From a bacterium (GTDB taxonomy: Bacteria; Patescibacteriota; Dojkabacteria; B142; OLB20), in the NCBI GenBank assembly GCA_021463645.1, contig JAJTYI010000009.1, positions 255,269 to 300,756 on the forward strand: a DNA stretch of 45,488 nucleotides, given 5' to 3'. The translations under genes and the position numbers were made by a program. The notes under the pieces were generated by a model that worked only from the letters and a program-made list of their open reading frames with translations, was not told where the DNA came from and made no database searches. Each line of letters starts with the position of its first letter. Position 1 is the first letter of the stretch. Below, in pieces: positions 2,836-37,247 of this stretch.

Positions 2836-2919
2836 TGCCAAGAGAGGGAATCGAACCCACACCCCCGTGAAGGGACCGGATTTTGAGTCCGGCGCGTCTA
2901 CCAATTCCGCCATCTTGGC
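2836..2919 (-). tRNA. tRNA-Leu(CAA), CCA not encoded
   Basis: Minus strand GCCAAGA...TCTTGGC A; anticodon arm CCGGA-CT-CAA-AA-TCCGG; long variable arm; GGTTCGATTCC. Confidence 0.96.
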
Positions 2920-2925
2920 TATATT

Positions 2926-2985
2926 TACCAACTCGTTCCTCGTAGCCCGACTATTCTGGGCGAAGAGGAATTCCGCCATCTTGGC
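2926..2985 (-). pseudogene. 5' fragment copy of tRNA-Leu interrupted by a 39-nt hairpin (2932-2970)
   Basis: GCCAAGATGGCGGAA[ttcctcttcgcccagaatagtcgggctacgaggaacgag]TTGGTA; flanks are identical to nt 1-21 of the adjacent tRNA. Confidence 0.85.
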
Positions 2986-3063
2986 AATATATACGTTAGT
3001 AGACCATTAATCATGGAAAACGTACATCGATTATAGCGGGAAATCCCTGAAATTAATAGTTCC

Positions 3064-3555
3064 CTATCCCTTTTTTCTTCCCAATTCTCTATTTGAGTTT
3101 AAACCAATTTGGGCAGCCATTTGCCCTGCAATCTTTTGTAAGGCAGCTTTCCTAGCACTAACAGCAGAACCCATCATTTCAATATTTTGATTCAATGATT
3201 CAAGTTTTCCTGAATATTCATTAATTCTATTTCCAATATCCTTCATACCTTTTTTAAGGTATGAGATTTGACCAATAATTTGCTCTTTTTGTGCACGTAA
3301 TTTGCTTAGCTGTTCCGCTACCTGTGGATGATCTGGCCCCAAAGGGTGGTTCTTTACGCTATTTATGGCACCATTTATCTGGTCAAGACCTCCATACATC
3401 CGTTTCAAATTGGACTGTATTTCATTTCGTTGATTTTTCATAGCAGAAACAGCTTCTTTTAGCTTTCCCCTACCTTTCATTGCTTCTTGTTTTTGGCTTT
3501 CTAGGGTAAGCGTTTCCGCCTTAATTTTGTTAATGCTAGCTTGAGCACCTGCCAT
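3064..3555 (-). CDS. Hypothetical coiled-coil protein
   Basis: 163 aa helical heptad-like sequence, co-oriented with neighbours. Confidence 0.65.
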   Translation of the reverse strand: MAGAQASINKIKAETLTLESQKQEAMKGRGKLKEAVSAMKNQRNEIQSNLKRMYGGLDQINGAINSVKNHPLGPDHPQVAEQLSKLRAQKEQIIGQISYLKKGMKDIGNRINEYSGKLESLNQNIEMMGSAVSARKAALQKIAGQMAAQIGLNSNRELGRKKG

Positions 3556-3571
3556 AGTTAAACTGGCTATA

Positions 3572-3910
3572 TTAAGATTGTGGGGTACTTAGATATTCGT
3601 TTCTGAAATTTACTAATACCTGAAGTATTTGTTGTTCTAAATTTGGGATATTAGTTATCAGAAATTCTAAAAGTCTTTCTTGTTCTGGGTTGGTCGCAAC
3701 TAATTGATCGAATTGTAGTTTCTGTTCTTCAGAAAGCATAGGTTCAAAATAATCTACAAGGTTATTACCAAACATATCATAGAGTCTATCAGATTCTTGA
3801 TTTAGGAAATCTATCTCTGTTTCATCACCATATTTTTCTTGAACCAATTGCATCATAAATGAAAGCACATTTTGATCTTTAGGCATACTGGCGTTTTGTG
3901 GGTTGTTCAT
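3572..3910 (-). CDS. Hypothetical acidic helical protein (resembles the CPR DUF5663-type family)
   Basis: 112 aa, MLSEEQKLQFDQL...IPNLEQQILQVL; family assignment from recall only. Confidence 0.55.
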   Translation of the reverse strand: MNNPQNASMPKDQNVLSFMMQLVQEKYGDETEIDFLNQESDRLYDMFGNNLVDYFEPMLSEEQKLQFDQLVATNPEQERLLEFLITNIPNLEQQILQVLVNFRNEYLSTPQS

Positions 3911-3946
3911 ATAAGTTATTTAATAATTATTAAATTTAACATATTT

Positions 3947-5263
3947 TTATTGCTGATGGTATCTATCAATTTCTTTAAATCTTGCCATCTCTTTAACAAA
4001 AAATAACTCAACTGCGCCAGTAGGACCATTTCTATGCTTTGCGACGGTGAGTGTCCTATTATCGCTATTTTCCCCATCTCCTCCTACCCTACTTAGAAAC
4101 AAAACAATATCCGCATCCTGTTCGATTGAACCGGAATCTCGAAGGTCTGACAACATCGGATTTCCATCTGATCTTTGTTCTATTGCACGACTTAACTGAG
4201 AAAGTGCAAGTACAGGTACATTTAACTCTCTAGCTATACCTTTAAGATATCTAGATATTTCAGACACTTCCTGAACCCGACCCTCTCGATTGTTCCCCAC
4301 AATCAGTTGGAGATAATCAACCACAACCATATCCAAACCTTTTTCTAATTTTAATTTCCTTGCTTTTGACCTCAATTCCATAATACTAATACCTGGTGTA
4401 TCATCAATATAAAGATTTGTTTCTGAAAGCATTCCCATCGCATCTGAGATCTTTGGGAAAAATTCATCCTTTATTCTGCCGGTCCTAAGATCCCACAAGC
4501 CCACACCTACTTGCATTGAGAGTAACCTATCCATCAACTGTGCACTAGACATTTCTAAAGAAAAGACGGCAACTGTTTTTTTATCGGTAACTGCGGCATG
4601 CCTTGCTATATCTAATGAAAACGCGGTCTTACCCACGGATGGTCTTGCGGCTAGGATAATTAAATCCGATTTTTGTAATCCACCTAACAAGTTATCTAAA
4701 TATAAAAAGCCAGTAGCTACACCTCTTACTGCTCCTGGGTTTTTGTTCAATTCCTCTGCTCTTTCATATGCATCTTCAAGTAATGTACTTATATGAACGA
4801 AGTCACTTTTACTACTTGTTTCAGAAATTTGAACAAGTGCTTTTTCAGCTTGATCAAGAAGCTCTGAAAGTTCCTTGTCCTCTTCATATGACATCCTTTC
4901 CAAATTTGATGACAACGAAATTATTTTTCTTCTTAAGGATGTTTCTTTTACTAATCGAGCATATTCTTCAACATGTGCAGACGTAGGAACACTACTTACT
5001 AGATCCGACAAGAACTTTACTCCACCAACATCCGCTAATTTTTTCTTTTTTTTGAGAACACTAGAGAGCGTTAATACGTCAACAGCCTTTTGATTAGAGA
5101 ATAGCTCAATACAGGATTTAAATATTAATCCGTTCGTTTTGTCGTAAAAGTCTTCAGAAGTAATTATCTCTGCAATTTTATAAATTGCCTCTGAGTCAAG
5201 AAGAATGGCACCTAAAACAGATTTCTCTGCATCTAGATTTTGTGGAGGTAACTTGATTTCCAA
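3947..5263 (-). CDS. dnaB: Replicative DNA helicase
   Basis: PPQNLDAEKSVLG, AARPSVGKT Walker A, VDYLQL, SDLRDSGSIEQDAD, KHRNGPTG. Confidence 0.98.
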   Translation of the reverse strand: MEIKLPPQNLDAEKSVLGAILLDSEAIYKIAEIITSEDFYDKTNGLIFKSCIELFSNQKAVDVLTLSSVLKKKKKLADVGGVKFLSDLVSSVPTSAHVEEYARLVKETSLRRKIISLSSNLERMSYEEDKELSELLDQAEKALVQISETSSKSDFVHISTLLEDAYERAEELNKNPGAVRGVATGFLYLDNLLGGLQKSDLIILAARPSVGKTAFSLDIARHAAVTDKKTVAVFSLEMSSAQLMDRLLSMQVGVGLWDLRTGRIKDEFFPKISDAMGMLSETNLYIDDTPGISIMELRSKARKLKLEKGLDMVVVDYLQLIVGNNREGRVQEVSEISRYLKGIARELNVPVLALSQLSRAIEQRSDGNPMLSDLRDSGSIEQDADIVLFLSRVGGDGENSDNRTLTVAKHRNGPTGAVELFFVKEMARFKEIDRYHQQ

Positions 5264-5266
5264 TTT

Positions 5267-5824
5267 TTAGTTATTTAATAAATACACTAATAGTTCGGAT
5301 GATTCACTATCAAAGTCCTTTTGAGCAACGTTTAATGTAGGTACTGATTCAATATTCGCAACGCCCAATGCTTTTTTGATGTCTTCTAGCTTAGATTTAT
5401 CTACAAGAGGAACAAAGATATCAGGTTCTAAGTCTGATACAATTTGTAGCTTTTTGTCTAGTTTCGAATCTTCAATTTCAGCTATCAAAATGTTCACATC
5501 TGGTAATTTTTCTATGATAGATTTATCTAAGTTGTCAACATGTGACAATAAATACAGAACTCGAATATTTTCGTTACTATCTAGAAAGATTATGTCTGGA
5601 TGATCAAGATTATCGCCATATGCGAAAATACTGAATAGTATGTCCTCAATTTCATATTCTCCTGGAGCACTCATTACGTTGTTGTCGGGTTCTACAAAAT
5701 CACCAATGTTAACTACGGATGCATACTCAGTTGTGTTAAATTTACCTTCTTTGTGGAATAACACTCGCTTTCCATCAGTATTAACTAATAAATTCTTTTT
5801 TTCTAGTTTTATTTTCATATTCAC
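5267..5824 (-). CDS. Degenerate MBL-fold (Lactamase_B_3-like) protein
   Basis: PGEYEI motif, DVNILI, LEPDIFVP; the HxHxDH metal motif is not evident. Confidence 0.55.
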   Translation of the reverse strand: MNMKIKLEKKNLLVNTDGKRVLFHKEGKFNTTEYASVVNIGDFVEPDNNVMSAPGEYEIEDILFSIFAYGDNLDHPDIIFLDSNENIRVLYLLSHVDNLDKSIIEKLPDVNILIAEIEDSKLDKKLQIVSDLEPDIFVPLVDKSKLEDIKKALGVANIESVPTLNVAQKDFDSESSELLVYLLNN

Positions 5825-5963
5825 AAATCCTAAATTTAAGTAATTATACTATATCATCTAAGACCTTTTTGACTAGTTTATTTGAATTTTTACAGGAACA
5901 TCAATTCCGTTTGTTGTACATAACATAATTAATTGTTATAATTCAAAAGTTTATTTGAAAGAA

Positions 5964-6284
5964 ATGAAAAAAGGGATACATCCAAAATTACATATGAATG
6001 CAAAAGTTACAGATCTCTCATCAGGGACTACTTTTACATTACCAAGCACAAAAGAAGAGATTGTTACAGAAGTTACTAACCTTAGTCATCCCTTTTACAC
6101 AGGTAAACATAGAATTGTAGACACAGAGAACCTTGTAAAGAAATTCGAGAAAAGACGACAAAGTGCAAATATTGACAAAGTTTCTTCAAAAAAGACAAAA
6201 CAGTCACAAAGAAAACAAAGAACAACATCAATCAACACAAAAAACACACTGACTCTTAAAGATATGCTTGCCAAGGTTAAATAA
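5964..6284 (+). CDS. rpmE: 50S ribosomal protein L31 (Cys-free type) with basic C-terminal extension
   Basis: MKKGIHP...SHPFYTGKHRIVDT; ATG at 5964 preferred to TTG at 5955. Confidence 0.93.
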   Translation: MKKGIHPKLHMNAKVTDLSSGTTFTLPSTKEEIVTEVTNLSHPFYTGKHRIVDTENLVKKFEKRRQSANIDKVSSKKTKQSQRKQRTTSINTKNTLTLKDMLAKVK

Positions 6285-6289
6285 CCTAG

Positions 6290-7339
6290 ATGGATAGCAA
6301 AATATATTCCATAATTTCTGAATACGAGAAAATCCTCTCATTACTCACTTCACCCGAAATATATTCTGACCATAAAAAATCTATCGAACTAAATTCTAAG
6401 TTAGACGATCTCAAAGAAAAATATTCCTACGCCAAAAAGATACAAAATTTAAACGAAGAAATTCAAGAAGCCAAAGACTTACTAGAAACAGAGTCAAGTC
6501 CCGATATAATTGAGTTTTACGAGAATGTTATCAGTTCCAACTCATCTCTGCTAACTAATACACAAAGTGAACTAAAGTCAATACTTTCCAAATCAATAGA
6601 ATTACCAAATCCCGGAATAATAGAAATCAGAGCAGGAACTGGGGGTGAAGAATCCAGCCTGTTTGCACAAGACTTATTAAGAATGTATTTAGGATATTTC
6701 GCCTCTCAAGGTTGGCAGGCAAATATTTTATCTGCCAATGAAAGTACACTTGGTGGGATTAAGGAAGTAATAGTTGAGATTACACAAAAAGGATCATATT
6801 CAAAATTAAGGTTTGAAAGTGGTGTACATAGAGTCCAACGTATTCCTAAAACTGAAACTTCCGGTAGAATTCATACCTCGGCAGTTTCAGTTGTAGTATA
6901 CCCTCGTGTCGAAGAACACGAAGTTGAACTTAATCAATCAGATTTAGAAATATACACTTATCGTTCAAGTGGACCTGGGGGACAAAGTGTAAATACCACT
7001 GACTCAGCAATAAGAATTACACACAAACCAACGGGTATTACAGTTACTTGCCAAGACAGCAAGTCTCAACTCAAAAATAAAGAAAAAGCTTTATCTATTT
7101 TAAGAGGAAAACTTTATGACGTTCAGCTCCAAGAATCAAATTCTACAATATCGGAAATTCGTAAATCATCTATTAAATCAGGAGACAGATCTGATAAAAT
7201 TCGCACCTACAACTTTCCACAAGACAGAGTTACTGACCACAGGATTAACAAATCATGGCATGGCTTACCAAATATACTTGGCGGAGACATTGATCAAATT
7301 ATTACAGAGGTTCGGACACAATTAACGTTACCCAAATGA
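6290..7339 (+). CDS. prfA: Peptide chain release factor 1
   Basis: GVHRVQRIPKTE (PxT motif), GPGGQSVNTTDSA, KIRTYNFPQ. Confidence 0.97.
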   Translation: MDSKIYSIISEYEKILSLLTSPEIYSDHKKSIELNSKLDDLKEKYSYAKKIQNLNEEIQEAKDLLETESSPDIIEFYENVISSNSSLLTNTQSELKSILSKSIELPNPGIIEIRAGTGGEESSLFAQDLLRMYLGYFASQGWQANILSANESTLGGIKEVIVEITQKGSYSKLRFESGVHRVQRIPKTETSGRIHTSAVSVVVYPRVEEHEVELNQSDLEIYTYRSSGPGGQSVNTTDSAIRITHKPTGITVTCQDSKSQLKNKEKALSILRGKLYDVQLQESNSTISEIRKSSIKSGDRSDKIRTYNFPQDRVTDHRINKSWHGLPNILGGDIDQIITEVRTQLTLPK

Positions 7340-8229
7340 AACGTTTAGATGAGAACAAACCATATACTTATCATCATGCCATAGATTCAATATCTAAAGC
7401 ATTATCGACATACTATAAAGACCCATATATCTATGCTTTATCAGTAATTAGTTCTGTAACTAAAATGGACAAACAGTTCATTCTAGTAAATATGGATAAC
7501 CCCCTCTCTATAAAACAGATCAAACTGGTAACAAACATAGAGAACAGACTGTTTCAAAGCTACCCTCTTTCGTATATTTTGGGTAACATAGATTTTTATA
7601 GGGAGAACTACGTAATAACTGAGTCAGTTTTAATTCCGAGACCCGAGACTGAGTTGATTGTGGAAGAAGCTATTACTTTCGTTAATAACTTTAACAAAAA
7701 ACGACAATTTAAAATATTAGAGATTGGTACGGGATCAGGTTGTATTTCAATTTCAATTTTAAATAACATCAAAAACAACAATGTTCAAATTGTTGCTACA
7801 GATATTTCTGAGAGCGCACTGAAGATTGCTCAGAGAAATGTAAATATTAATTTACAGAAATCTCGACGTAGTAGAATTATGTTTGTCGAGCAAGATATAT
7901 TGACTGAACTCCCAAGTGAGTGTTTTGATTTAATCATCTCGAATCCTCCGTATATACCTCTTGACGAATACAAAAAGTTGGAAAAGTCACTATACTATGA
8001 ACCAGAAATAGCACTAACTGATTTTTCTAATGGATTGAGATTCTACAAGCGTTTGGCTTTGTCAGTAAAGAATAATTTAAATACTGGTGGCATGGCTATA
8101 TTTGAAATACATTCAATGAATACAGAAAATACATTAAAAGTATTTAAGGAGATTCTAGGTAAAAAAACAATACTAATGATACTGAAAGACACCTTTGGTA
8201 GAGATAGGTTTCTTAAAATACTTACTTAG
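7336..8229 (+). CDS. prmC: Release factor glutamine methyltransferase
   Basis: VLIPRPETE, EIGTGSGCI, SNPPYI; ATGA overlap with prfA. Confidence 0.95.
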   Translation: MKRLDENKPYTYHHAIDSISKALSTYYKDPYIYALSVISSVTKMDKQFILVNMDNPLSIKQIKLVTNIENRLFQSYPLSYILGNIDFYRENYVITESVLIPRPETELIVEEAITFVNNFNKKRQFKILEIGTGSGCISISILNNIKNNNVQIVATDISESALKIAQRNVNINLQKSRRSRIMFVEQDILTELPSECFDLIISNPPYIPLDEYKKLEKSLYYEPEIALTDFSNGLRFYKRLALSVKNNLNTGGMAIFEIHSMNTENTLKVFKEILGKKTILMILKDTFGRDRFLKILT

Positions 8230-9442
8230 AAAGTAGTAGTTCTAAAGCCTTTTTCTCTTGTTCCTCATTATCTTCTACCTCATGATTTGGGGTTATTGGC
8301 TCATCCTCCGTTATATTTCTTCCACTTGGTGTTAACCACTTTTGGAAGACAATTTGCAACATTGAACCGTCAGAGAGATTGATTAACTTCTGCTCTACTC
8401 CTTTTCCTACTGTTTTTGTTCCAACAACTTGCGCCCTATCATTATCCTGCATAGCTCCTGCAAAGATTTCCGAAGAAGATGCGCTACCTTCATTTACGAT
8501 AACAACCATGGGAATATCTAATAAGCGCCCTTCCCTATTCACTTTGAATTGAGATTTTCTTCCAGATCTTTCTTGTTCTTGGAAAACTATTGCCCCCTTC
8601 GGAAGAAATTCACTAACTGAATAACGAACTGCATCTACAAAACCACCAGGATTATTTCTTAAATCTACAATCAAACCCTTTGGGTTATCTTTAATTATTT
8701 GGTCAATATTTGCATCCCATTCTATGTTAAAAGTCTCTACATCAGCTTCAGTAAATTGATATACTTTTAACATTTTTATCCCATCCTCGAGGTCAACTAC
8801 CTCGATATTCTTCAGGTCAATCTTCTGTCTAATTATTTCCACATCATTCGTTTCATTACTACTTGGACGGTAATATGTAATCATCACTTTTGAATTTGCT
8901 TCCCCACGTATATTTTGAGCTACCTCAACAACAGATTTTCCTTGCATGTCTACCTCATCGACCTCAAGTATGACATCTTTGGACTTCAAACCTGCTTTTT
9001 GAGCAGGAGAACCATCGATAGGGCTTTCGATAATAACAAACTCACCTTCCTGCGCAAGGGTGGTTCCTATTCCCTCAAACTCCCTTTTGTTCCCACTCAA
9101 ATACTCTTGTGTCTCCTCCGGAGTTAGAAAACTTGTGTACCGATCGTCAAGACCTTTTACTAATCCGTCTACAGCTCCATAAAGCAATTCTTGACCATCG
9201 ATGTCTTCTGTATCTATGTATTCCCTTTCAATTTCTGACCAAACTTCCCACAGTAGTCCTACATCTACATTCTTTCTTTCTGTAAGTCTATCCCCTGTGA
9301 TTTGGTATTTCTCTGGGACTATCTCTGCATTTCCAAATAAATCAATTTTCCCTATGTAAAAGCCAGCTACAAATATTGCAATTATTAATATAAAAATAAT
9401 AAGGTATTTAGGACCTCCATTGTTATTTACTCTCTGTATCAT
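8222..9442 (-). CDS. ctpA: S41 family carboxyl-terminal processing protease with PDZ domain
   Basis: FEGIG, DLRNNPGG, SASSSEIFAGA, TVGKG; N-terminal TM anchor. Confidence 0.92.
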   Translation of the reverse strand: MIQRVNNNGGPKYLIIFILIIAIFVAGFYIGKIDLFGNAEIVPEKYQITGDRLTERKNVDVGLLWEVWSEIEREYIDTEDIDGQELLYGAVDGLVKGLDDRYTSFLTPEETQEYLSGNKREFEGIGTTLAQEGEFVIIESPIDGSPAQKAGLKSKDVILEVDEVDMQGKSVVEVAQNIRGEANSKVMITYYRPSSNETNDVEIIRQKIDLKNIEVVDLEDGIKMLKVYQFTEADVETFNIEWDANIDQIIKDNPKGLIVDLRNNPGGFVDAVRYSVSEFLPKGAIVFQEQERSGRKSQFKVNREGRLLDIPMVVIVNEGSASSSEIFAGAMQDNDRAQVVGTKTVGKGVEQKLINLSDGSMLQIVFQKWLTPSGRNITEDEPITPNHEVEDNEEQEKKALELLLSK

Positions 9443-11354: not shown

Positions 11355-11374
11355 TGGGCAGAATGTATTTTAGT

Positions 11375-11617: not shown

Positions 11618-11626
11618 TTTTACTTA

Positions 11627-13656: not shown

Positions 13657-13669
13657 GTTTTTATGATAA

Positions 13670-29184: not shown

Positions 29185-29992
29185 TTCTTTCGATACTAAG
29201 TATAAATACTTCATCCAAATTTTTAAGGTCAGGGATTATTTTTAACACTGCACTTTTCGTAGTCAAGCTATCATTATCATTAACCTCAACCACCTCCCCA
29301 ACAACTAATCCTTTTTGTAAAATCTCATTCTCAGAGCTAGTTATGACACTCTCCCCCACATTTATAGTACTACCACGAGGAATTTCGTTCATTACTAGTC
29401 CTATACTAAAGTCGCCCTTGATCACTCCTTTTGCATTGTTTTCCATAGAAATTGCAGAAATAATTGTATCAGGCGAATTTATTAATCTGGCTATACTATT
29501 TATTCTATTGACTTCTACAATCTCTCCGAGTAAGAAGTTCTTGATAATTAATGCATCACCAACTTTCACGTTGTCCATGCTTCCTTTGTTAATTAATACA
29601 TGTCCAAATTTGTCAGGGATATAAGAGGTAACAGTTGCCGGAATCGTTTCAGCTTGATTGGTAAAAGTATTTTGTTCTTTTATAATTTCTAGTTCCTTGA
29701 GATTTGTATATAACTTGGTGTTTTCTGACCTTAAAATAAGATTTTCTTCTTCAAGTTGCTCCACTTTCTCTAATGTTTCCTTTCTGTCTTTAAAGACATC
29801 TGTGGTTTTAAATACACTGTCAATTGTTCGTGACGAATCATTCGTTATATTAACACCAATGCTATGTGCAACGCTTTTTATTGGATTGAAAAAACCGATT
29901 CCATCAAATAGAAGTAAAAGTAGACACAAGATGAGCAATCCTATGTTTAGTGGTAGAGATAGCAATTGTTTGTTTGTTTTAATACTGGGCAA
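29174..29992 (-). CDS. mreC: Rod shape-determining protein MreC
   Basis: TM plus coiled coil, INKGSMDNVKVG, GESVITS, KGLVVGEV. Confidence 0.92.
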   Translation of the reverse strand: MPSIKTNKQLLSLPLNIGLLILCLLLLLFDGIGFFNPIKSVAHSIGVNITNDSSRTIDSVFKTTDVFKDRKETLEKVEQLEEENLILRSENTKLYTNLKELEIIKEQNTFTNQAETIPATVTSYIPDKFGHVLINKGSMDNVKVGDALIIKNFLLGEIVEVNRINSIARLINSPDTIISAISMENNAKGVIKGDFSIGLVMNEIPRGSTINVGESVITSSENEILQKGLVVGEVVEVNDNDSLTTKSAVLKIIPDLKNLDEVFILSIERNVE

Positions 29993-30003
29993 ATTATTTA
30001 CAC

Positions 30004-31068
30004 TTAAAAAATATCTCTATCTTTTAACTGGAGTCGCTCTAAAAGATCGATTTCTTCTAGTAATGTTGCAGTACCTCGAACTACACATGTGAGTGGATCG
30101 TCAGCCACAATCACGGGTGTTTGCAACTTTTCCTCCAAATATCGGTCCAAGCCCTCTATAAGAGCACCACCACCAGCCAGTGTAATCCCCTTATCCAATA
30201 AGTCTGAGAGTATTTCAGGTGGTGTTTGCTCGAGAGCATCTTTGATTGACTCAACAATTTTATCGATAACTTTGATTATTGCTTCACGAACCTCAACACT
30301 AGTAAGTGTAATAATTTTTGGAAGTCCCGTAATCATATCTCTCCCCTTTACCTCCATTTCTCTTTCTTTTTTTAATGGTTTGACTGATCCAATTGCTATT
30401 TTCACATCCTCGGCAAATTTGAGACCAATTTGTAAGTTATATTTATTTTTAACATAATTTAATATTTCGTCATCAATTTCATTTCCAGCTATCCGGACAG
30501 TTGTATCTACAACAATCCCACCGAGTGAAATGACAGCAATGTCAGTAGTTCCTCCGCCAATGTCTACGACCATACTTCCTGAAGCGTCGTCTATCGCCAA
30601 ACCAGCCCCAATCGCAGCTGCCATTGGCTCCTCCACGATATATACTTTTCTTGCTCCTGCGGATGTAGCAGCATCAATTACCGCTCTAGCCTCTACTTCT
30701 GTTATAGATGAAGGGATTCCTATTACAACTCTAGGTCGTTTTATTTTTAATAATTTAGGGTATTCATCGTAAACTCTATGGATAAAATATCTAATCATCG
30801 CTTCTGTAGAATCGAAGTCGGAAATAACGCCATCTTTAAGTGGTCTAACCGCAATAATTGCTGCTGGAGTTCTACCTATCATTCTTCTGGCTTCCTCTCC
30901 GACGGCTAGAATCTTTTTAGTATCTTTATTTATAGCAACAACAGATGGCTCACTGACCACAATCCCGTGACCTTTTATAGATACAATTGTATTAGTGGTA
31001 CCCAAATCAATACCTACATCATGAGTTATAGCAGGGAGCAGCTTATTAAAAATTATCACAGAGTTCAA
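30004..31068 (-). CDS. mreB: Rod shape-determining protein MreB (operon copy)
   Basis: GIDLGTTNT, EPMAAAIGAG, DIGGGTTD, LAGGGAL. Confidence 0.97.
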   Translation of the reverse strand: MNSVIIFNKLLPAITHDVGIDLGTTNTIVSIKGHGIVVSEPSVVAINKDTKKILAVGEEARRMIGRTPAAIIAVRPLKDGVISDFDSTEAMIRYFIHRVYDEYPKLLKIKRPRVVIGIPSSITEVEARAVIDAATSAGARKVYIVEEPMAAAIGAGLAIDDASGSMVVDIGGGTTDIAVISLGGIVVDTTVRIAGNEIDDEILNYVKNKYNLQIGLKFAEDVKIAIGSVKPLKKEREMEVKGRDMITGLPKIITLTSVEVREAIIKVIDKIVESIKDALEQTPPEILSDLLDKGITLAGGGALIEGLDRYLEEKLQTPVIVADDPLTCVVRGTATLLEEIDLLERLQLKDRDIF

Positions 31069-31155
31069 TGGTAAGTTAAGTTCAATATTCTACCACTTGT
31101 AACAGGGAATATTCCACCTAGAGTTCTAGTTGTTTGCGCAATATCAGAAGATTTA

Positions 31156-31185
31156 TTGTTACTTGGGATTCAATTTTGATATACT
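31156..31185 (+). promoter_or_regulatory. Sigma70-type promoter for the 6S-like RNA
   Basis: TTGTTA (31156)-18 nt-TATACT (31180) with TG extension; predicted start near G31191. Confidence 0.5.
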
Positions 31186-31190
31186 TTACT

Positions 31191-31345
31191 GCCCTACCAA
31201 TGCTCTTTTGATAGATCAAATTGAACTCGACACTTTCAATAGGGAATCCGAAATCTTCCTGTCTACGTGTAGATGGGACTGAGGACAACCACTTGTGGTT
31301 TAGGAGTTTCCAATTCTTCTATCAGGGAACTGCAGTAGGGCTTTT
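31191..31345 (+). ncRNA. ssrS: Probable 6S RNA
   Basis: Rod with central bubble: GCCCTAC/GTAGGGC, TTTGATAGA/TCTATCAGG (G-U pairs work only on the + strand), AATTG-AACTC/GAGTT-CAATT, apical CCTGTCTAC/GTAGATGGG; TTGAAC...GGGA motif; U-tract end. Confidence 0.72.
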
Positions 31346-31386
31346 TTATGCTCATTTCAATTGTTTTCTGTTATAATTTTTCTCAT

Positions 31387-31435
31387 GCTGGAATAGCTTC
31401 CTTCTTCGCTAAAGCTACGAAGGACAAGCAGTTGG
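31387..31435 (+). pseudogene. 5' fragment copy of tRNA-Thr(GGT) interrupted by a 30-nt hairpin (31399-31428)
   Basis: GCTGGAATAGCT[tccttcttcgctaaagctacgaaggacaag]CAGTTGG; flanks are identical to nt 1-19 of the adjacent tRNA. Confidence 0.85.
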
Positions 31436-31451
31436 TTTTGAGACCAGCTAC

Positions 31452-31524
31452 GCTGGAATAGCTCAGTTGGCAGAGCACACCCATGGTAAGGGTGGGGTCC
31501 AGAGTTCGAATCTCTGTTCCAGCT
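31452..31524 (+). tRNA. tRNA-Thr(GGT), CCA not encoded
   Basis: GCTGGAA/TTCCAGC acceptor, CACCC-AT-GGT-AA-GGGTG, CAGAG-TTCGAAT-CTCTG. Confidence 0.96.
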
Positions 31525-31605
31525 TACTAACTTTTCTTAACGAGCTTGCGAGTTTAGAAAAGTTGTAATCCCGTAGATCTACCTTAGGGAGATCATACGG
31601 GATCT
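31524..31605 (+). repeat. Two-hairpin trailer cassette, homologous to 36526-36608
   Basis: TTAC.AACTTTTCT...AGAAAAGTT.GTAA followed by TCCCGTA...TACGGGA-TCT. Confidence 0.85.
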
Positions 31606-31688
31606 AAATCTAATACATACGTACTGAGAAAAGCGAATTCGAATGAAATTAGGATATCGAGGATCTACTTTAAGACAAACTTTATTTA

Positions 31689-32543
31689 ATGAATAGTACA
31701 CCCACTGAAATTTACAATCTTTGTAGTTCTCTATTAACAACAGTTGCGCTAATCGCATTGAAATTTCACGGCAAAGTGGCTAACGATATTAAACTATCCA
31801 CAGACTTGACTGGTACCAGACAAGATCAAGCAAGGGTTACTGCAAAAACAGATATTGATGAATTGATTGAAGATATTTTCTTGCATAAATTATTAGAGGC
31901 AGGTATGTCACGATTAATTTCGGTCGATGTAGAAGAACAATCAAATTTGGTTGAAAAATTCACAACTTCAGGCGAATACAAGTTTGTTCTTGATCCTATT
32001 GACGGAACTATTAATTATTTGGATGCAAATGATAATGATTTCTCAATTAATGTTGCATTAGTTTCCAAAGAAGGAATAGAATTTAGCTTTATCGCATTCC
32101 CAATGCTTAATACTCTATTCACTAATCGTAAAGGTGAATATACAGTTGGTACACTAGCAGAAAACTTGGAGATTAATTTTCAAAATAAATTTGAAGTTAC
32201 CGATGATACTCACAAAATTAGCAATCTAATACAGCATAATCGTAGAACTCCGGAAGAAATACTTTCTAATTTAACCAATCATAAGTTACAAATTACTCCT
32301 TCTAATGGTCTATACTTTCCAATACTAGATATTCTTGCGGGTAAATGTGATGCCGTAATAGCAGGAACGCCGATGGTGAGGGATATATTACTTCATGAAA
32401 TAATAGCTGGATTGTATCCTGAAATTTTTGAAATGTATAACTTCAAAGGTAATCGGCTCGATTATTTTTCCGAGCCAAGATTGAAAGAATTTGTATTCGC
32501 TAAAAAAGGACTGAAAAAAATAATCATTAATAGAGAAGCCTGA
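31689..32543 (+). CDS. Inositol monophosphatase family protein (divergent)
   Basis: KTDID, EE, VLDPIDGTINY. Confidence 0.8.
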   Translation: MNSTPTEIYNLCSSLLTTVALIALKFHGKVANDIKLSTDLTGTRQDQARVTAKTDIDELIEDIFLHKLLEAGMSRLISVDVEEQSNLVEKFTTSGEYKFVLDPIDGTINYLDANDNDFSINVALVSKEGIEFSFIAFPMLNTLFTNRKGEYTVGTLAENLEINFQNKFEVTDDTHKISNLIQHNRRTPEEILSNLTNHKLQITPSNGLYFPILDILAGKCDAVIAGTPMVRDILLHEIIAGLYPEIFEMYNFKGNRLDYFSEPRLKEFVFAKKGLKKIIINREA

Positions 32544-32561
32544 AAAGCTATGATAAAGTGA

Positions 32562-33152
32562 GTGAATATTACGAAATTATATCAAATGAACACAGCCGAT
32601 AATAAATCAGAAAAAATAGACATTTTAGACAACCAAGGAAGGGTTACATCTCAATCAAAAACTCGAGACTTAATCCATAAAGATGGAAATTGGCATCAGT
32701 CTATACATCTATACATTTTAGATAAAAATAATCGTGTATTATTTCAAAGACGCTCGAAAGATAAGATGCTGTTTGCAAGTATGTACGCATGCCCAGTTGG
32801 TGGCCACATTAAATCTGGGGAAGCACCACTTTCCACATTAGTAAAAGAATCACTTGAAGAAATAAATTTACAAATTAAAACCGAAGATTTGACCTATCTA
32901 GGTATTGATAGAGTTGGATATCACAATCCTAAAGTCGATTTATCTGAGAACGAATTTGTTCATATATATATTCTAAATCTTGACGAAGAAATAAACTTAA
33001 ATGTGGAAAATGCTGAAGTTGAAGGTTTATTTTGGTTTGACTTCGATGACTTTAAAACTAAAGTCCGTTCGAAGAACGAAGAGTTTATGCCCTGTTGGAT
33101 TATCTACGAAAAGATTATTGATTATGTTGAGAACTTGAAAAAGTTTATTTGA
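32562..33152 (+). CDS. NUDIX hydrolase, IPP-isomerase-like
   Basis: HKDGNWHQSIH, LFQRRS, GGHIKSGE...KESLEEINL, ENE. Confidence 0.85.
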   Translation: MNITKLYQMNTADNKSEKIDILDNQGRVTSQSKTRDLIHKDGNWHQSIHLYILDKNNRVLFQRRSKDKMLFASMYACPVGGHIKSGEAPLSTLVKESLEEINLQIKTEDLTYLGIDRVGYHNPKVDLSENEFVHIYILNLDEEINLNVENAEVEGLFWFDFDDFKTKVRSKNEEFMPCWIIYEKIIDYVENLKKFI

Positions 33153-33186
33153 GGTCTCAATATTACTGTTTTAAAATAAGTTTCAG

Positions 33187-34446
33187 TCAGCCACCGATGA
33201 ATGTAGTACTCCCAGATCTCTCAACAGGATTCCACTCACAATTAAATGTACCTTTTTTTCTTTCGGACATAATTTTTTTAATGCTTATCAATCCAACAAC
33301 ACTCACTAAATACTCATAATACACTACAAGATACATAGGAACCATTAACAGAATCGATAAAAAGGATAATTTCAATCGTTCCACTAAATTATAACCGTTA
33401 GAAGCTCCCAACATTTGGAACGTTGTAAAAGTAACAAATACAATTATACATGTAATCAACGTTCCATAATCGTTCACCTGAATAATCAGGTATAGGACGT
33501 AACCCAGAATCAACGGCTCAAGTAAATAAGAGAATTCGGCATAAAGTGCATAAGGTAAGTATATCCAACTTAGTAAAAAGTTGTATCGAGTGGAAAAGAA
33601 CAACTTTCTTCGTTTAAAGAATGACTGATATCTCCCGTATTTCCATCTAATTCTTTGTTTATACAAATCTGGTAAGCTCAAGACCGCTTCAGTGTATACG
33701 ACAACATTTGGACTATAACCAATTTTTTTGTCTTTTCCGTAAAATTCAATTATTTTCATGGAAAGATCTATATCTTCGGTTATTGTATCCGTATCATATA
33801 AACCAACTTCCTTTAATTCTGTTAATCTATACATAGACCCTACTCCCCCAATAATATATTGGATATGTGCAAAGACCTCGGCCTTTTTCATCTGATAATT
33901 CAACAAATACTCAACGCGTTGAAGCAAATTTAAGAACCCTTTATCAGCGAGAATTTTGACATTGGCAGAAAGAGCTACTAAGTTCTCATCTCTAAATTCC
34001 TTGACAGCGTTTTCTATTGCATTTGGAGATAGCATTGAGTCGGCATCTAAACACATAACTAATGTACCATTAGCATATTTAAGTCCGAGATTTAATGCTT
34101 TAGCTTTTCCACGAACTTGAACATCCACTACTTTTACTCCAAAATATTCTCTTTGAAATTTACAAGCAATTCTCTTAGTTGCGTCAGTACTGCTATCATT
34201 TACAATGATAAGCTCAATGTACTTATAAGTGCTTGCTGCTACACTTTTGATGTTTCTTAATAGCGTTTTTTCTTCATTATGAGCAGGAACGATTACCGTT
34301 ACTAATGGATTATATTCTTGTAATTCTTTTTGGCCATGTCTTCTACTCCTAATTATATCGTGAACGTCACTTCCTATAAGAAAAAAAGCCATCCTGATTA
34401 GATTGATAGCACTTAGAACAAAGACTAGATATGCAATAAATATCAA
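33187..34446 (-). CDS. Processive glycosyltransferase family 2 (PgaC/IcaA-like)
   Basis: VPAHNEE, DSSTD, GKAKALN, LDAD, TEDID, QRIRW; C-terminal TM helices. Confidence 0.92.
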   Translation of the reverse strand: MIFIAYLVFVLSAINLIRMAFFLIGSDVHDIIRSRRHGQKELQEYNPLVTVIVPAHNEEKTLLRNIKSVAASTYKYIELIIVNDSSTDATKRIACKFQREYFGVKVVDVQVRGKAKALNLGLKYANGTLVMCLDADSMLSPNAIENAVKEFRDENLVALSANVKILADKGFLNLLQRVEYLLNYQMKKAEVFAHIQYIIGGVGSMYRLTELKEVGLYDTDTITEDIDLSMKIIEFYGKDKKIGYSPNVVVYTEAVLSLPDLYKQRIRWKYGRYQSFFKRRKLFFSTRYNFLLSWIYLPYALYAEFSYLLEPLILGYVLYLIIQVNDYGTLITCIIVFVTFTTFQMLGASNGYNLVERLKLSFLSILLMVPMYLVVYYEYLVSVVGLISIKKIMSERKKGTFNCEWNPVERSGSTTFIGG

Positions 34447-34646
34447 TTGTGGTTTTCAATATCGGTGGAAATTGTTTTTATAGTCCTAGTTATAAGAACT
34501 AGGGCGAACACAAGTCCAAAACCAACAAATAAATATTGAAAAATCGAGCTGCCGGTTGCGGCAAGGACCATTCCAGAAGCTCCAGATGCTGTGGCTAATC
34601 CAGCAACTTGACCAACTTGTAATAATGGTGATGTAGATCCAGACAT
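34443..34646 (-). CDS. 67-aa peptide with an LPXTG-like motif (LAATG), a TM helix and basic residues
   Basis: MSGSTSPLLQVGQVAGLATASGASGMVLAATGSSIFQYLFVGFGLVFALVLITRTIK; TTGA overlap with the GT2 start; ATG at 34646 preferred. Confidence 0.65.
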   Translation of the reverse strand: MSGSTSPLLQVGQVAGLATASGASGMVLAATGSSIFQYLFVGFGLVFALVLITRTIKTISTDIENHN

Positions 34647-34698
34647 GATATTAAAATAATTATATATAATGATATCATATCTACCTTGTCGAATCAAC

Positions 34699-34980
34699 CT
34701 ATTTACGGACAATATGGGGGGTGTTTCGAAGATTCCCAATATTTAATTTAAGACGATTTATTTTCTCCTCCCTACTCCATTTCTTAATCTCAATCTCTCG
34801 TTTCAAAGCTTCAGACCAGCTCTCGAAACATTCCGTATAAATTAATTTAAATGGCTTCCTGCTGTTAACGTATTTTGACCCTTTGCCACTATTGTGTACT
34901 TCTAAACGCTCTTCAATATCTTTAGCAACACCTGTATAAAGTGAGTTGTCCCTGCATAATAATATATATAAGTTGCACAT
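34699..34980 (-). CDS. Stand-alone GIY-YIG nuclease (YhbQ/UPF0213-like)
   Basis: LYILLCRDNSLYTG, RLEVHNSGKGSKY, ALKREIEIK. Confidence 0.92.
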   Translation of the reverse strand: MCNLYILLCRDNSLYTGVAKDIEERLEVHNSGKGSKYVNSRKPFKLIYTECFESWSEALKREIEIKKWSREEKINRLKLNIGNLRNTPHIVRK

Positions 34981-34984
34981 CAGG

Positions 34985-35284
34985 TTATTTGATAATGGAT
35001 TTTGAAATTGCCCCCACGAAAAGCCTGTAAGCAGGTCTTTTCTCAGGTTTATAAATGTAATGAATTCCTATTAAAGTATCACAATTATCGCAGTATAAAT
35101 CACTATTCTCAGATTTAGTATTAATATCGAATATTCTGTCTAAATATAGTCGTTTAAGAATCCCTGGTCCATCTTTTTGATATTTAGCAATTTTAGACAT
35201 ACAACTACTACATTTTATTTGGTAGAGCTTCGTGTTCGAACCTCTACTCTTATAATATCTGTCTTTTTGGATTTTGTATCTCAT
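34985..35284 (-). CDS. Hypothetical protein with two CxxC pairs (Zn-binding)
   Basis: CSSC...YQKDGPGILKRLYLDRI...CDNC. Confidence 0.7.
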   Translation of the reverse strand: MRYKIQKDRYYKSRGSNTKLYQIKCSSCMSKIAKYQKDGPGILKRLYLDRIFDINTKSENSDLYCDNCDTLIGIHYIYKPEKRPAYRLFVGAISKSIIK

Positions 35285-35381
35285 TTGAATTACAAAGAAT
35301 TAATTAGATGATAAAAAAATTTGATTTTACCAGCAAAGGTCCCGTATAAATTTCTACGAAATTTTACTTTACACTCAATTT

Positions 35382-35479
35382 GTCATCAGCTCACTTTGTT
35401 CGCTGGACTTTTAAAGACCCTGAATCTTGTTCAGAGTCCTACCAGTGGTCTGTGTTCGTTTCACTCACACACCACTGGT
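35382..35479 (-). repeat. Three-hairpin trailer downstream of tRNA-Ala
   Basis: Minus strand ACCAGTGGT-GTGT-GA-GT-GAA-AC-GA-ACAC-AG-ACCACTGGT; GGACTCTGAA...TTCAGGGTCT; GTC-CAGC-GA-AC-AAA-GT-GA-GCTG-AT-GAC. Confidence 0.75.
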
Positions 35480-35550
35480 GGACTTAATGGGAATCGAACC
35501 CATAGCTCCGCAATGCGAATGCGGTATTTTACCAATTAAACTATAAGCCC
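35476..35550 (-). tRNA. tRNA-Ala(CGC) with encoded CCA
   Basis: GGGCTTA/TAAGTCC with G3:U70, CCGCA-TT-CGC-AT-TGCGG, ATGGG-TTCGATT-CCCAT, ACCA. Confidence 0.95.
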
Positions 35551-35805
35551 CTATAAATTAACGTTATTGTTAATTTTACATCTCAATCATTATTTTTCCA
35601 AAAAATATTATTTCTCTTCTTTTTTAATGATTTTACTGATAAAATCTTCCTACCCTTAAATAATTTCCCTTTTTAATAATAAAAACCGCCACAGGCTTAT
35701 TTAAAATTGGAAAAAAAATTAGGTTTGAGATATACTCAATTGTTCTTTGATTTGCAAGGATTTAATGCTTTTTGCTGATTTTTGAAAGTCATTATGACTT
35801 AAGAA

Positions 35806-35870
35806 AAGCAAGCGCAAGCAGGAGTCAAGTCGCTAGCGATCTTGACGGATGCTGGAGCTTTGCTTCGACG
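35806..35870 (+). repeat. Structured leader cassette upstream of tRNA-Tyr, homologous to 36957-37022
   Basis: Nested stems aagcaag/ctttgctt, agca/tgct, gtcaag/cttgac; ends GCTGGAGCTTTGCTTCGACG. Confidence 0.75.
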
Positions 35871-35872
35871 CA

Positions 35873-35955
35873 GCAGAGGTGACGGAGCGGTCAAACGTAC
35901 CAGACTGTAAATCTGGCGGCGAGAGTCTACGGGGGTTCGAATCCCTCCCTCTGCA
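35873..35955 (+). tRNA. tRNA-Tyr(GTA), CCA not encoded
   Basis: GCAGAGG/CCTCTGC, CCAGA-CT-GTA-AA-TCTGG, long variable arm, GGGGG-TTCGAAT-CCCTC. Confidence 0.96.
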
Positions 35956-36023
35956 ATTAATTTGTAATAGCTCGTTATAATAAAAATGTTATGTTCGAAA
36001 AATCGATTGGGATGAAAAGTTTA

Positions 36024-36134
36024 CCCCGTGAATCGAACATAGTGAGATTGCACGGGGAATCCCTCCCTCTGCACCAATTCATTCAACGAACTTTGTGAGT
36101 TGAAAATGAATTGAGTGCCTGACTTTGGCAGGCA
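36024..36134 (+). repeat. Hairpin cassettes surrounding a 3'-end copy of tRNA-Tyr (36057-36076)
   Basis: CCCCGTG...CACGGGG (36024-36057), GAATCCCTCCCTCTGCA+CCA, CAATTCATT...AATGAATTG (36075-36113), TGCCTG...CAGGCA (36116-36134). Confidence 0.8.
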
Positions 36135-36294
36135 TAAGATTAGAATAGCTCTTTATAAGTAATATAATGCTGGAGTAGCTCAGTCCCGATAAATTGTAAC
36201 TCTGTTACAAATTTATCGTGGATCCTCACTGTTCTAATTCATCCCTTCTGGAGAAGGGAGGAAAGAACAGTGGGATTGGTAGAGTCCCGCAGGA

Positions 36295-36479
36295 GCTGGG
36301 ATAGCTTCCCGCTTCGCTTAAGCTACGCGGGACAGGCAGTTGGTTAGAGTCACTCCTCAGCTGGAGTAGCTCAGTTGGTAGAGCAACGGTTTTGTAAACC
36401 GTCGGTCATGGGTTCGAGTCCCCTCTCCAGCTGAGGAGTGATAAACAGTAGGTCGAGAGTTCGAATCTCTCCCCCAGCT
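36295..36479 (+). pseudogene. Middle tRNA shell (Thr-like, different isoacceptor) lacking the anticodon, with a 30-nt D-stem insert
   Basis: GCTGGGATAGCT[30 nt]CAGTTGGTTAGAG[...]TAAACAGTAGGTCGAGAGTTCGAATCTCTCCCCCAGC. Confidence 0.82.
36360..36432 (+). tRNA. tRNA-Thr(TGT), intact innermost gene, CCA not encoded
   Basis: GCTGGAG/CTCCAGC, GCTC/GAGC, ACGGT-TT-TGT-AA-ACCGT, GGGTTCGAGTCCC. Confidence 0.96.
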
Positions 36480-36525
36480 CCAACGGGATAAACCGTCGGT
36501 CATGGGTTCGAGTCCCCTCTCCAGC

Positions 36526-36608
36526 TTACTAGAGTTTCTTAATGAATAATGTGAATTTAGAAACTCTGTAATCCTCGAAATTGAGCGTAGCGAAATTATC
36601 GAGGATCT
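36526..36608 (+). repeat. Two-hairpin trailer cassette, homologous to 31524-31605
   Basis: TTAC.AGAGTTTCT...AGAAACTCT.GTAA followed by TCCTCGA...TCGAGGA-TCT. Confidence 0.85.
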
Positions 36609-36642
36609 TTACAAATTTAAATAACTATTAATAACAAAAATA

Positions 36643-36810
36643 ATGGCAAAAAAAGGAAATAGAATAATTATTAAGATGGCCAATCCTAAGACTGGTACAT
36701 TTTATATAACAAAGAAAAATAGAATAAATACGAACGAAAAAATTGAAACCAAAAAGTTCGATAAGAAAACACGTAAACACGAGAAGTTCATTGAATCAAA
36801 AGTAAAATAA
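36643..36810 (+). CDS. rpmG: 50S ribosomal protein L33 (Cys-free); below the ORF-track cutoff
   Basis: Translated by hand: MAKKGNRIIIKMANPKTGTFYITKKNRINTNEKIETKKFDKKTRKHEKFIESKVK; lies upstream of tRNA-Trp-secE-nusG. Confidence 0.93.
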   Translation: MAKKGNRIIIKMANPKTGTFYITKKNRINTNEKIETKKFDKKTRKHEKFIESKVK

Positions 36811-36918
36811 TATTTAAAAATTAAAAAATTTAAGTATTAAGAGATTATAAGACGAGAATAATCTGAGTTATTAGTTCAGATTATTTAATAATGAAAGTTC
36901 TTTAATAATTTTCTTTTA

Positions 36919-36949
36919 AGATTTTAACGACTATAAGGAGTTAAAATCT
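36919..36949 (+). repeat. Tandem-GA hairpin cassette
   Basis: AGATTTTAAC-GA-CT-ATA-AG-GA-GTTAAAATCT. Confidence 0.75.
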
Positions 36950-36956
36950 CAAAGGA

Positions 36957-37022
36957 GCAACAGGTGGAAGCTGAAGTGAAGTACTTTAGCATCTTCACAA
37001 AAGCTGGAGCCTTGTTGCGACG
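36957..37022 (+). repeat. Structured leader cassette upstream of tRNA-Trp, homologous to 35806-35870
   Basis: gcaacagg/ccttgttgc, agct/agct, gtgaag/cttcac; ends GCTGGAGCCTTGTTGCGACG. Confidence 0.75.
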
Positions 37023-37023
37023 A

Positions 37024-37095
37024 AGGGTCATGATGTCAATGGTAGCATGGAGGTCTCCAAAACCTCTCGTCTAGGTTCGAATCCTAGTGACCCTG
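37024..37095 (+). tRNA. tRNA-Trp(CCA), CCA end not encoded
   Basis: AGGGTCA/TGACCCT, GAGGT-CT-CCA-AA-ACCTC, CTAGG-TTCGAAT-CCTAG. Confidence 0.96.
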
Positions 37096-37247
37096 TATGA
37101 AAGTATATAAGTAAAAAGCAAAATACTTTCGTCTAGGTTCCCCCGTATTAAATACGGGGCTAGTGACCATGTATGAAAGTATATAAGTAAAAAACAAAAT
37201 ACTTTCGTCTAGGTTCCCCCATATTGAATACGGGGTTAGTGGCCATG
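37096..37247 (+). repeat. Two tandem 76-bp units, each carrying an interrupted copy of the tRNA-Trp 3' end
   Basis: tatgaaagtat...atactt-TCGTCTAGGTTC[ccccgtattaaatacgggg]CTAGTGACCATG at 37096-37171 and 37172-37247. Confidence 0.9.

Follow-up and report, generated by a model that had tools for sequence, protein, structure and literature searches.

This work concerns the transfer RNA (tRNA) loci of a 45,488-nucleotide window (C9:255269-300756 of the analysed genome, G000), in which all six tRNA genes are accompanied by displaced copies of their own ends, by hairpin modules, or by both. The genome is a metagenome-type assembly of 1.20 Mb in 9 contigs (C1 to C9), with ~35% GC, 41 tRNAs and 88% completeness. 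From this size and from its relatives (0.5-2.1 Mb), a bacterium of the CPR type is suspected. The six tRNA genes were identified concordantly by ARAGORN and Rfam. Coordinates without a contig name are positions of the window.

The intact tRNA-Leu(caa) gene is located at 2836-2919 on the minus strand. Direct reading and folding of its flank revealed a displaced 5′ end at 2926-2985, upstream of the intact gene and on the same strand, consisting of positions 1-17 of the tRNA, a D-loop module (2932-2970) and 6 nt of D loop. The same arrangement was found on the plus strand at tRNA-Thr(ggt), where the intact gene (31452-31524) is preceded by a displaced 5′ end at 31387-31451 with positions 1-12 (31387-31398), a D-loop module (31399-31428), positions 13-19 and a short remnant of the 3′ end. 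tRNA-Tyr and tRNA-Trp, both on the plus strand, carry 3′ copies on the downstream side. The intact tRNA-Tyr gene (35873-35955) is followed at 36008-36076 by a T-loop module (a single-stranded motif and a hairpin at 36024-36057), the T-stem/acceptor 3′ strand and a terminal CCA. Behind the intact tRNA-Trp gene (37024-37095) lie two tandem units (37096-37246), each a trailer copy plus a copy of the T-arm/acceptor 3′ part. The interrupted T-arm copies themselves span 37130-37246, and their T-loop hairpins (37140-37159 and 37216-37235) follow GTTC.

At tRNA-Thr(tgt), also on the plus strand, the intact gene (36359-36433) is nested within two interrupted copies (36169-36526) and lies between the arms of a 9-bp inverted repeat that lengthens its acceptor stem. 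In the 5′ part of the outermost copy (36169-36294), a two-hairpin composite (36185-36276) separates positions 1-16 from positions 17-24 within the D loop, and an inverted-repeat left arm follows. The 5′ part of the middle copy (36295-36358) is a second allele; it includes a D-loop module (36307-36336) as well as the 9-bp inverted repeat's left arm. On the 3′ side (36434-36526), the middle copy extends to 36482 and ends in CCA; the outermost copy (36490-36526) is followed by the ancestral trailer. The intact tRNA-Ala(cgc) gene (35476-35550, minus strand) has no self-copy in its trailer region, only two hairpins (35417-35479), the first of which (35441-35479) pairs with the ACCA end of the gene over 9 bp. 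An initial annotation, made from the letters of the window alone, had described all of these arrangements, namely the upstream 5′ copies with a D-arm hairpin at Leu and Thr(GGT), the downstream 3′ copies with a T-loop hairpin at Tyr and Trp, the nest at Thr(TGT), the paired trailer at Ala and the constant retention of one intact gene, and direct reading of the flanks agreed with it in each case.

The inserts in the window fold into stable hairpins with z-scores from -2.0 to -4.9. The units are 60-170 nt long and contain no open reading frame (ORF), and no cargo genes were found between the repeats. No stringent GC-rich hairpin was detected in the protein operons at 3.1-31 kb, where relaxed hairpins occurred at 0.61 per kb, whereas the densities for the two tRNA regions were 5.7 and 6.6 per kb; the earlier impression, gained by eye, that protein operons lack the cassettes was therefore correct. 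Two cassettes away from tRNAs had been overlooked. One is a D-loop-type module between rplA and rplJ (39324-39351, plus strand) that caps a local helix in the rplJ leader. The other, a two-hairpin composite repeated in tandem three times or more (45190-45488, plus strand), has no tRNA near it, and contig C9 ends within the array. The composite of this array also occupies the D loops of tRNA-Lys and tRNA-Gln fragments elsewhere in the genome.

The initial annotation had stated that every tRNA is decorated and had proposed aligning each tRNA to its 500-nt flanks. With a same-strand exact self-match of at least 11 nt within 500 nt as the threshold, 28 of the 41 tRNAs carried self-copies, a count in which exact-word matching misses diverged copies, while the antisense control gave 0 of 41. 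The claim thus holds for the six tRNAs of the window and for about two thirds of them genome-wide. Such a self-match was found at 28 of 2050 random 1-kb places. The words are not fully specific, as a tRNA and another tRNA's flank shared an 11-mer in 136 of 1640 pairs, because of neighbouring genes and conserved D/T words. Outside intact genes, a BLAST census yielded 28 tRNA-like fragments, and for 23 of these the nearest tRNA was no more than 600 nt away. The polarity seen in the window was confirmed throughout the genome: upstream copies derive from the 5′ half at 14 tRNAs and from the 3′ half at 1, and downstream copies derive from the 3′ half at 18 tRNAs and from the 5′ half at 3. GC-rich hairpins with a 6-bp stem were also enriched near tRNAs, as had been expected, with 3.0 per kb at distances up to 100 nt from a tRNA versus 0.1 per kb at more than 1 kb. 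Within intergenic DNA only, the contrast falls to 2.36 versus 0.75 per kb, since further families of hairpin repeats are located elsewhere in the genome.

The interrupted copies contain their inserts in D, anticodon or T loops; they are truncated, and an uninterrupted gene stands alongside. As in tRNA islands, a portion of the target gene forms the direct repeats, at one end of which the gene is restored intact. A search for tRNAs existing solely in interrupted form, using ARAGORN with introns and a low threshold, returned only noise. The inner edges of the fragments vary, with 5′ parts ending near position 14-25, 33 or 48 and 3′ parts starting at 5, 10, 34-39 or 44-50. The 3′ start points cluster at ~34-39 and 44-50, which we take to be the anticodon-loop and T-loop classes used by integrases. 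The assembly contains a tRNA-Ile with anticodon UAU at C5:1705-1778; tRNA-Ile(GAU) and tRNA-Ala(UGC), which were not found in it, are probably located in an unassembled rRNA spacer.

The hairpin modules fall into recurring families. In the D-loop module, a 6-7 bp outer stem that varies in sequence from copy to copy leads to a 3x3 internal loop, where the core CTTCGC ... GCTWCG is conserved, and then to a short inner stem, after which CAAG or CAGG often stands. A structural descriptor of this module matched 27 sites in the genome and 5-10 in shuffled genomes. Twenty-two sites belong to the true family (18 within 400 nt of a tRNA or 16S gene, 3 at the transfer-messenger RNA (tmRNA) and 1 in the rplJ leader), and the remaining 5 are AT-rich chance matches. 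Twenty of the 22 members have the orientation of the RNA gene. Among motif-only matches, 20 of 85 possessed an outward stem of 5 bp or more, with 18 distinct stems, versus none in a slid control. The T-loop module consists of an unpaired CGAGAAGTTTAT-type motif, a variable CC..GG hairpin and AAGY; T-loop hairpins directly after GTTC form a separate class. A two-hairpin composite at AGT^TGG in the D loop was found at tRNA-Met (twice) and in the outer Thr(tgt) copy, and differs from that of the array at the window end.

These multi-copy hairpins are adjoined by a conserved unpaired motif, as in repetitive extragenic palindromic (REP) and IS200-type elements. Many are followed by CAAG or preceded by CTTG. 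The tetranucleotide is found at many junctions but not at every one, and insertions in D loops and at the 16S gene lack CTTG/GTTC. The distance between module and inner edge is a constant 5-16 nt in short fragments. Miniature inverted-repeat transposable elements (MITEs) do not fit, since the outer stems differ between copies and no consistent target-site duplication was found at the D-loop or 16S sites; an AG repeat at the T-loop module is possible as a duplication, and ambiguous. Integron attC sites were considered and rejected, since there the outer sequence is conserved and the inner one variable, the reverse of the modules here. Simple staggered-cut target duplication was likewise rejected, the module lying inside the displaced copy and not between repeats. 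Rfam contained nothing for the T-loop module (E<=1), for the D-loop module beyond noise (E<=10) or for the other hairpin clusters, and matched only tRNA, rRNA and tmRNA. Literature searches by words and motif strings found no description of these modules in the texts covered, although supplements, which lay outside them, may hold relevant tables; PMC9897764 and PMC5217627 deal with other subjects.

The modules are not confined to tRNA loci. The 16S gene has an upstream copy of its own 5′ end, interrupted by the module family seen in tRNA-Thr and tRNA-Leu. The 463-nt tmRNA, matched by Rfam and missed by ARAGORN, contains one D-loop-type module downstream of the stop codons of the tag, and its 3′ end directly adjoins a second. 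The presence of modules at the 16S 5′ end, in the tmRNA and in the rplJ leader indicates that the target is not tRNA as such. The proposal that an element family targets tRNA D and T arms consequently stands as to the recurring families and their position in D, anticodon and T loops, and fails as to their restriction to tRNAs; matches in viral contigs, described below, are not tRNA-linked either. GC-clamped hairpins of like style were also seen inside the 16S sequence (C8:12280-12303 and C8:13640-13682), and could be expansion inserts.

Comparison with congeners showed presence/absence polymorphism at orthologous loci, as the initial annotation had anticipated. At the Tyr-Thr-rpmG-Trp locus, G001 has no fragments, and tRNA-Tyr is followed after 5 nt by tRNA-Thr. 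G002 has no fragments either, and its intact Thr allele is of the type of the interrupted middle Thr(tgt) copy in the window. G004 is also clean, and its leader and trailer match the outermost Thr(tgt) fragments. G003 carries a nest of its own form, built with different hairpins, and its tRNA-Tyr fragment lacks the hairpin that is present in the analysed genome. Among tRNAs with fetched flanks, self-copies were found at 16 of 38 in G004 and 4 of 38 in G002, and different tRNAs are affected than in the analysed genome. These locus-by-locus differences indicate fast turnover at the DNA level. In the tRNA-Lys(ttt) leader of both G004 (L023) and the analysed genome (C4:179044-179130), a GC-clamped hairpin precedes a long AT-rich one. 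The two genomes share this layout but not the sequences of the hairpins, and modules seem to have been exchanged there at a fixed position.

Several loci provide before/after pairs that give the order of events. At tRNA-Met (C8), two units of ~174 nt are inserted, and in G004 the shared native leader stands directly on a clean gene. At fMet, G004 has gained two downstream units, and the trailer shared with the analysed genome comes after the first displaced fragment. The displaced 5′ end of tRNA-Thr(ggt) is at the ancestral start site, behind a conserved -10 box, and G004 retains only a decayed remnant of it. Together with Thr(tgt), these pairs indicate that the ancestral gene end survives in the outer copy and that the intact, inner end arrived later. 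The spacers that came with it, including those of Met and fMet, have no other copy in the genome, and the inverted repeat around the intact Thr(tgt) gene was not found in the clean relatives.

The initial annotation had proposed that the intact gene is regenerated by local duplication. The main rival to the explanation that we prefer is of this kind, namely plain local tandem duplication with random breakpoints (by replication slippage, template switching or unequal crossing-over at structured RNA genes with high transcription) combined with independent MITE- or REP-like palindromes settling in dispensable tRNA-like loops, without any unit that exchanges a gene end. It accounts for the varying breakpoints, for trailers and leaders that are clear duplicates of the native flank (Ile, Lys-ctt, Trp and Gln), for the near-identical array units at Gln-ctg, which show active unequal crossing-over, for modules that behave as separate entities and for the absence of recombinases near most loci. 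It conflicts with several of the before/after pairs, in which the ancestral end stays with the native promoter or trailer and the spacer of the intact end comes from neither native leader nor trailer (Met, fMet). It also leaves unexplained the different allele in the middle Thr(tgt) copy and the inverted repeat around the intact gene, and ordinary bacteria are not known to carry partial copies beside two in three of their tRNAs. We consider it doubtful.

The absence of a cargo island or integrase, a further claim of the initial annotation, holds for the loci of the window, where no recombinase lies in or adjoins the units, but not for the genome. The genome encodes two Xer-like tyrosine recombinases and two large serine recombinases, and recombinases stand beside tRNA-Ser(gct) and tRNA-His only. 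Four interrupted tRNA-Ser(gct) copies, all starting at position 10, flank segments of 1 kb and 8 kb. The 8-kb segment is an island with a large serine recombinase and is the sole cargo-bearing case. The older of these copies hold four modules and the youngest two. Separately, two intact tRNA-His genes lie 8 kb apart at C4:133681-143689, with a 548-amino-acid large serine recombinase and a staphylococcal-nuclease-domain protein beside the first; the region is probably an island carrying its own tRNA-His. Serine recombinases number 2, 1, 1, 1 and 0 across five congeners, too few genomes for inference. No match in the genome was found for the Y1 HUH transposase (PF01797), TnpB (PF07282) or reverse transcriptase (RVT_1). 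The Y2 transposase (PF04986) gave no match either, in a weak search whose control was silent in every genome.

The module-tagged ends look like mobile DNA of a sort that has seldom been described, able to reside in stable-RNA genes and leave them intact. We favour, with a probability of about one half, a model of two layers, in which serial insertions that replace gene ends are followed by colonization of the displaced ends by loop-seeking palindromic modules. In the first layer, a short unit would bring a new 5′ or 3′ gene part with its own promoter-like or terminator-containing spacer. The unit would join the new end to the rest of the gene and push the previous end outward, and unequal crossing-over would then multiply units into small arrays. 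We infer for these gene-end units an insertion following the logic of tRNA-targeting integrative elements and their accretion, except that the units would be mostly cargo-less (~50-200 bp) and would act on both sides of the gene. In the second layer, GC-clamped palindromic modules would prefer loops of folded nucleic acid and would fill both the displaced, dispensable ends and tolerant loops of functional RNAs, while selection would eliminate hits in the single intact gene copy. Such modules would be non-autonomous, presumably moved in trans, either by a site-specific recombinase or by an enzyme with hairpins or single strands as its substrate. The insertion of hairpins seems separable from the duplication of ends, because older copies carry more modules.

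Several observations weigh against the two-layer model. Two Xer-like and two serine recombinases are too few and too specific for ~20 different tRNAs, the enzyme hunt yielded no candidate, and most loci in other phyla have no integrase nearby and are followed by ordinary genes such as nusG after tRNA-Trp. The variable inner edges fit random-breakpoint duplication equally well as site-specific insertion. Several trailers (Ile, Lys-ctt) are plain duplicates of the native trailer at ~88-90% identity, as simple tandem duplication predicts. The tRNA-derived parts of some old fragments (Met) are identical to the live gene while the neighbouring sequence has diverged, which could reflect selection for function. 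Finally, the constant module-to-inner-edge distance may mean that module and junction arose from one event, not two.

A one-step alternative is hinted at by the shortness and constancy of this distance. There the units would form a cross-phylum class of tiny mobile units whose module motif directs insertion into D or T loops, and the same event would lay down a fresh end with its promoter or terminator, probably through single-stranded hairpin DNA and a trans-acting enzyme. As each hit would supply a fresh gene end, the essential gene would survive. We put this forward tentatively, as possible rather than probable.

Modules of the same kind occur well outside the genus. A scan of species genomes with a T-loop 14-mer gave at least 120 loci, which are mostly chance matches and meaningful only beside tRNAs. 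Among the 80 loci examined, 24 had the motif 7-76 nt downstream of a same-strand tRNA, usually followed by a T-stem/acceptor 3′ copy. Carriers of the T-loop module include many Bacteroidota, some of them isolates, as well as Synechococcus (in a tandem array), a Chlorobiota genome, Komeilibacteria and Roizmanbacteria. The same architecture was present in isolate genomes of Flagellimonas, Aquimarina, Allomuricauda and Flavobacterium. At the Komeilibacteria locus, a tRNA-Asn 5′ fragment and a D-loop module also form a unit that is present upstream in three tandem copies. The left spacer of the cross-phylum units often contains an intrinsic terminator unlike the one after the copy, and this difference from the native terminator is a further difficulty for tandem duplication. 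The exact T-loop motif was found in 15 of 101 genomes of the family of one Flavobacterium (23 matches versus 1 for a control pattern) and in 26 of 301 genomes of the phylum of the analysed genome (36 versus 7).

In viral contigs, the D-loop core was found in at least 120, and 36 of 126 matches had covarying stems that were 5 bp or longer, in many cases with CAAG after them; only one of these viral matches was near tRNAs. A scan with a 17-mer gave 27 matches in viral contigs, 26 of them chance hits in coding regions. L220, a circular 13.7-kb contig from a viral collection, contains a tRNA-Asn T-arm block, a terminator, a T-loop module with a 3′ copy, and a tyrosine integrase. A search for related loci with the L220 integrase recovered only L220 itself.

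In three Bacteroidota genomes the T-loop module at tRNA-Trp is nearly identical although the spacers differ. This conservation raises the possibility that the decorated copies are functional, as leaders or trailers for processing or termination, as decoys for tRNA-targeting enzymes, toxins or integrases, or as spare ends. The covarying stems, the conserved unpaired motifs, the co-orientation of 20 of 22 modules with the RNA gene, the modules within an apparently functional tmRNA and in the rplJ leader, and the exact match of the Met fragments to the gene are all in keeping with a function. The distribution, however, is patchy, at 15 of 101 and 26 of 301 genomes, some congeners are clean (4 of 38 in G002, and the G001 locus), and sister genomes are hit at different tRNAs. 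Fragments also decay by deletion, as at Thr(ggt) in G004, and intrinsic terminators often precede the unit, so that co-transcription may not occur. A functional origin is accordingly judged unlikely.

The position of the modules in loops and their orientation with transcription would also suit an origin at the RNA level, in which intron-like modules, or modules entering RNA loops, were fixed in DNA via reverse transcription. Three displaced copies end in CCA (Tyr, Ser-gct and middle Thr), whereas the live genes and their orthologues have no CCA. Most 3′ copies carry a trailer and not CCA, which indicates that they are DNA copies; most fragments thus contain leader or trailer DNA and not mature ends. 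As the interrupted copies are truncated they cannot yield tRNA, the genome lacks a reverse transcriptase match, and no splicing machinery came to light, although no search was aimed at it. We regard this origin as very improbable.

Of the 18 contig ends, 8 have a tRNA, the 16S gene or a fragment of a tRNA at a distance of ~500 nt or less (the starts of C1, C5 and C9 and the ends of C2, C3, C6, C7 and C8), and the decorated loci seem to break the assembly. The end of C2 and the start of C1 have a tRNA-Leu(taa) 3′ fragment in common. Loci that disturb assembly in this way raise the question of an artefact in which strain variants of a metagenome were stitched in tandem. The modules in the interrupted copies are absent from every clean variant, and the architecture recurs in independent assemblies, including isolate genomes, which makes an artefact a very remote prospect.

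The displaced ends resemble the products of tRNA-targeting integrative elements in that the intact gene is regenerated, partial copies form direct repeats, newcomers displace older units and remnants accumulate. The tycheposon report (10.1101/2020.12.28.424599) describes serial tRNA integration that pushes older elements outward and leaves partial tRNAs, and the Dehalococcoides ssrA islands (PMC3146451) are another example of integrative elements targeting tRNA or tmRNA. Tyrosine or large serine recombinases are found at some loci here too (the tRNA-Ser island and L220). Unlike integrative elements, the units here are mostly without cargo or recombinase, are only 50-200 bp long and affect two thirds of the tRNAs rather than a few. 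The 5′ side of the gene is affected too, through units with a promoter-like spacer, as is the 5′ end of the 16S gene, and hairpins fill the displaced ends. Cis-mobilizable elements are a further example of integrative-element accretion.

Short palindromic non-autonomous repeats are known as REP/bacterial interspersed mosaic elements, Rickettsia palindromic elements, which lie inside genes, Correia elements and MITEs. Like them, the modules are short, multi-copy and context-tolerant, have no ORF and keep their hairpin by covariation. Unlike them, the modules target loops of stable-RNA genes and have no cognate match to a Y1 or REP-associated tyrosine transposase (RAYT) here; two of the module families span phyla or occur in viral contigs. 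In contrast to terminal inverted repeats, the inner motif is conserved and the outer stem variable. At E. coli tyrT, the rtT tandem repeats each contain the 3′ end of tRNA-Tyr, so that a tRNA 3′ end with its trailer is repeated downstream in tandem units, as here. tyrT is a single locus, however, with no hairpin insert known in its T loop, no genome-wide occurrence and no known 5′ counterpart. A literature search on tyrT/rtT found no paper.

Archaeal non-canonical tRNA introns are inserted in a functional gene and spliced out. They and split tRNAs share with the modules short structured inserts at D-, anticodon- and T-loop positions and the occurrence of related inserts at different tRNAs. In contrast to archaeal or group I introns, the interrupted copies here are truncated and an uninterrupted gene is adjacent, and the host is bacterial, as judged from EF-P, the L33-SecE-NusG order and a bacterial 16S. 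In the IS91 family and Helitrons, a hairpin lies beside a CTTG/GTTC tetranucleotide and flanking DNA is captured. The many modules adjoining CAAG/CTTG, and the T-loop class right after GTTC, may be compared with these rolling-circle HUH elements, and read-through replication of the HUH type could in principle copy flanking gene ends. No Y2 match was obtained (with the silent control noted above), the tetranucleotide is missing at the D-loop and 16S sites, and no autonomous copy was found.

If the proposed explanation is true, a host-sparing element would have targets in every genome, as tRNA and rRNA genes are the most conserved in biology, and this would fit the cross-phylum spread. It would also explain why tRNA loci break the assemblies of small-genome bacteria. 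The displaced ends are an added source of false or partial tRNA calls, and they may offer a route to a recombination enzyme with specificity for folded loops. The conserved T-loop module in cultivable Flavobacteriaceae makes the question experimentally accessible. Even if only decayed integrative elements and palindromic repeats are involved, the scarring of nearly all stable-RNA loci in a 1.2-Mb genome is extreme.

Other hairpin repeats were observed in the genome. A separate MITE-like family, with no Rfam match, consists of paired inverted repeats of ~26 nt (core CCTGCGAAGGCAGG) around a spacer of ~30 nt; its sites are far from tRNAs (C1:100001-100085, C1:107493, C2:51549, C4:30099, C4:214209, C5:71596 and C6:43658). 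Two other recurring hairpins, without an Rfam match at E<=0.1 and unrelated to tRNAs, have the cores CTCCGCGG..CCGCGGAG and CCCGTG..CACGGG and occur in clusters at C3:24504-24551, C5:128042-128228, C6:33221-33323 and C9:34432-34650.

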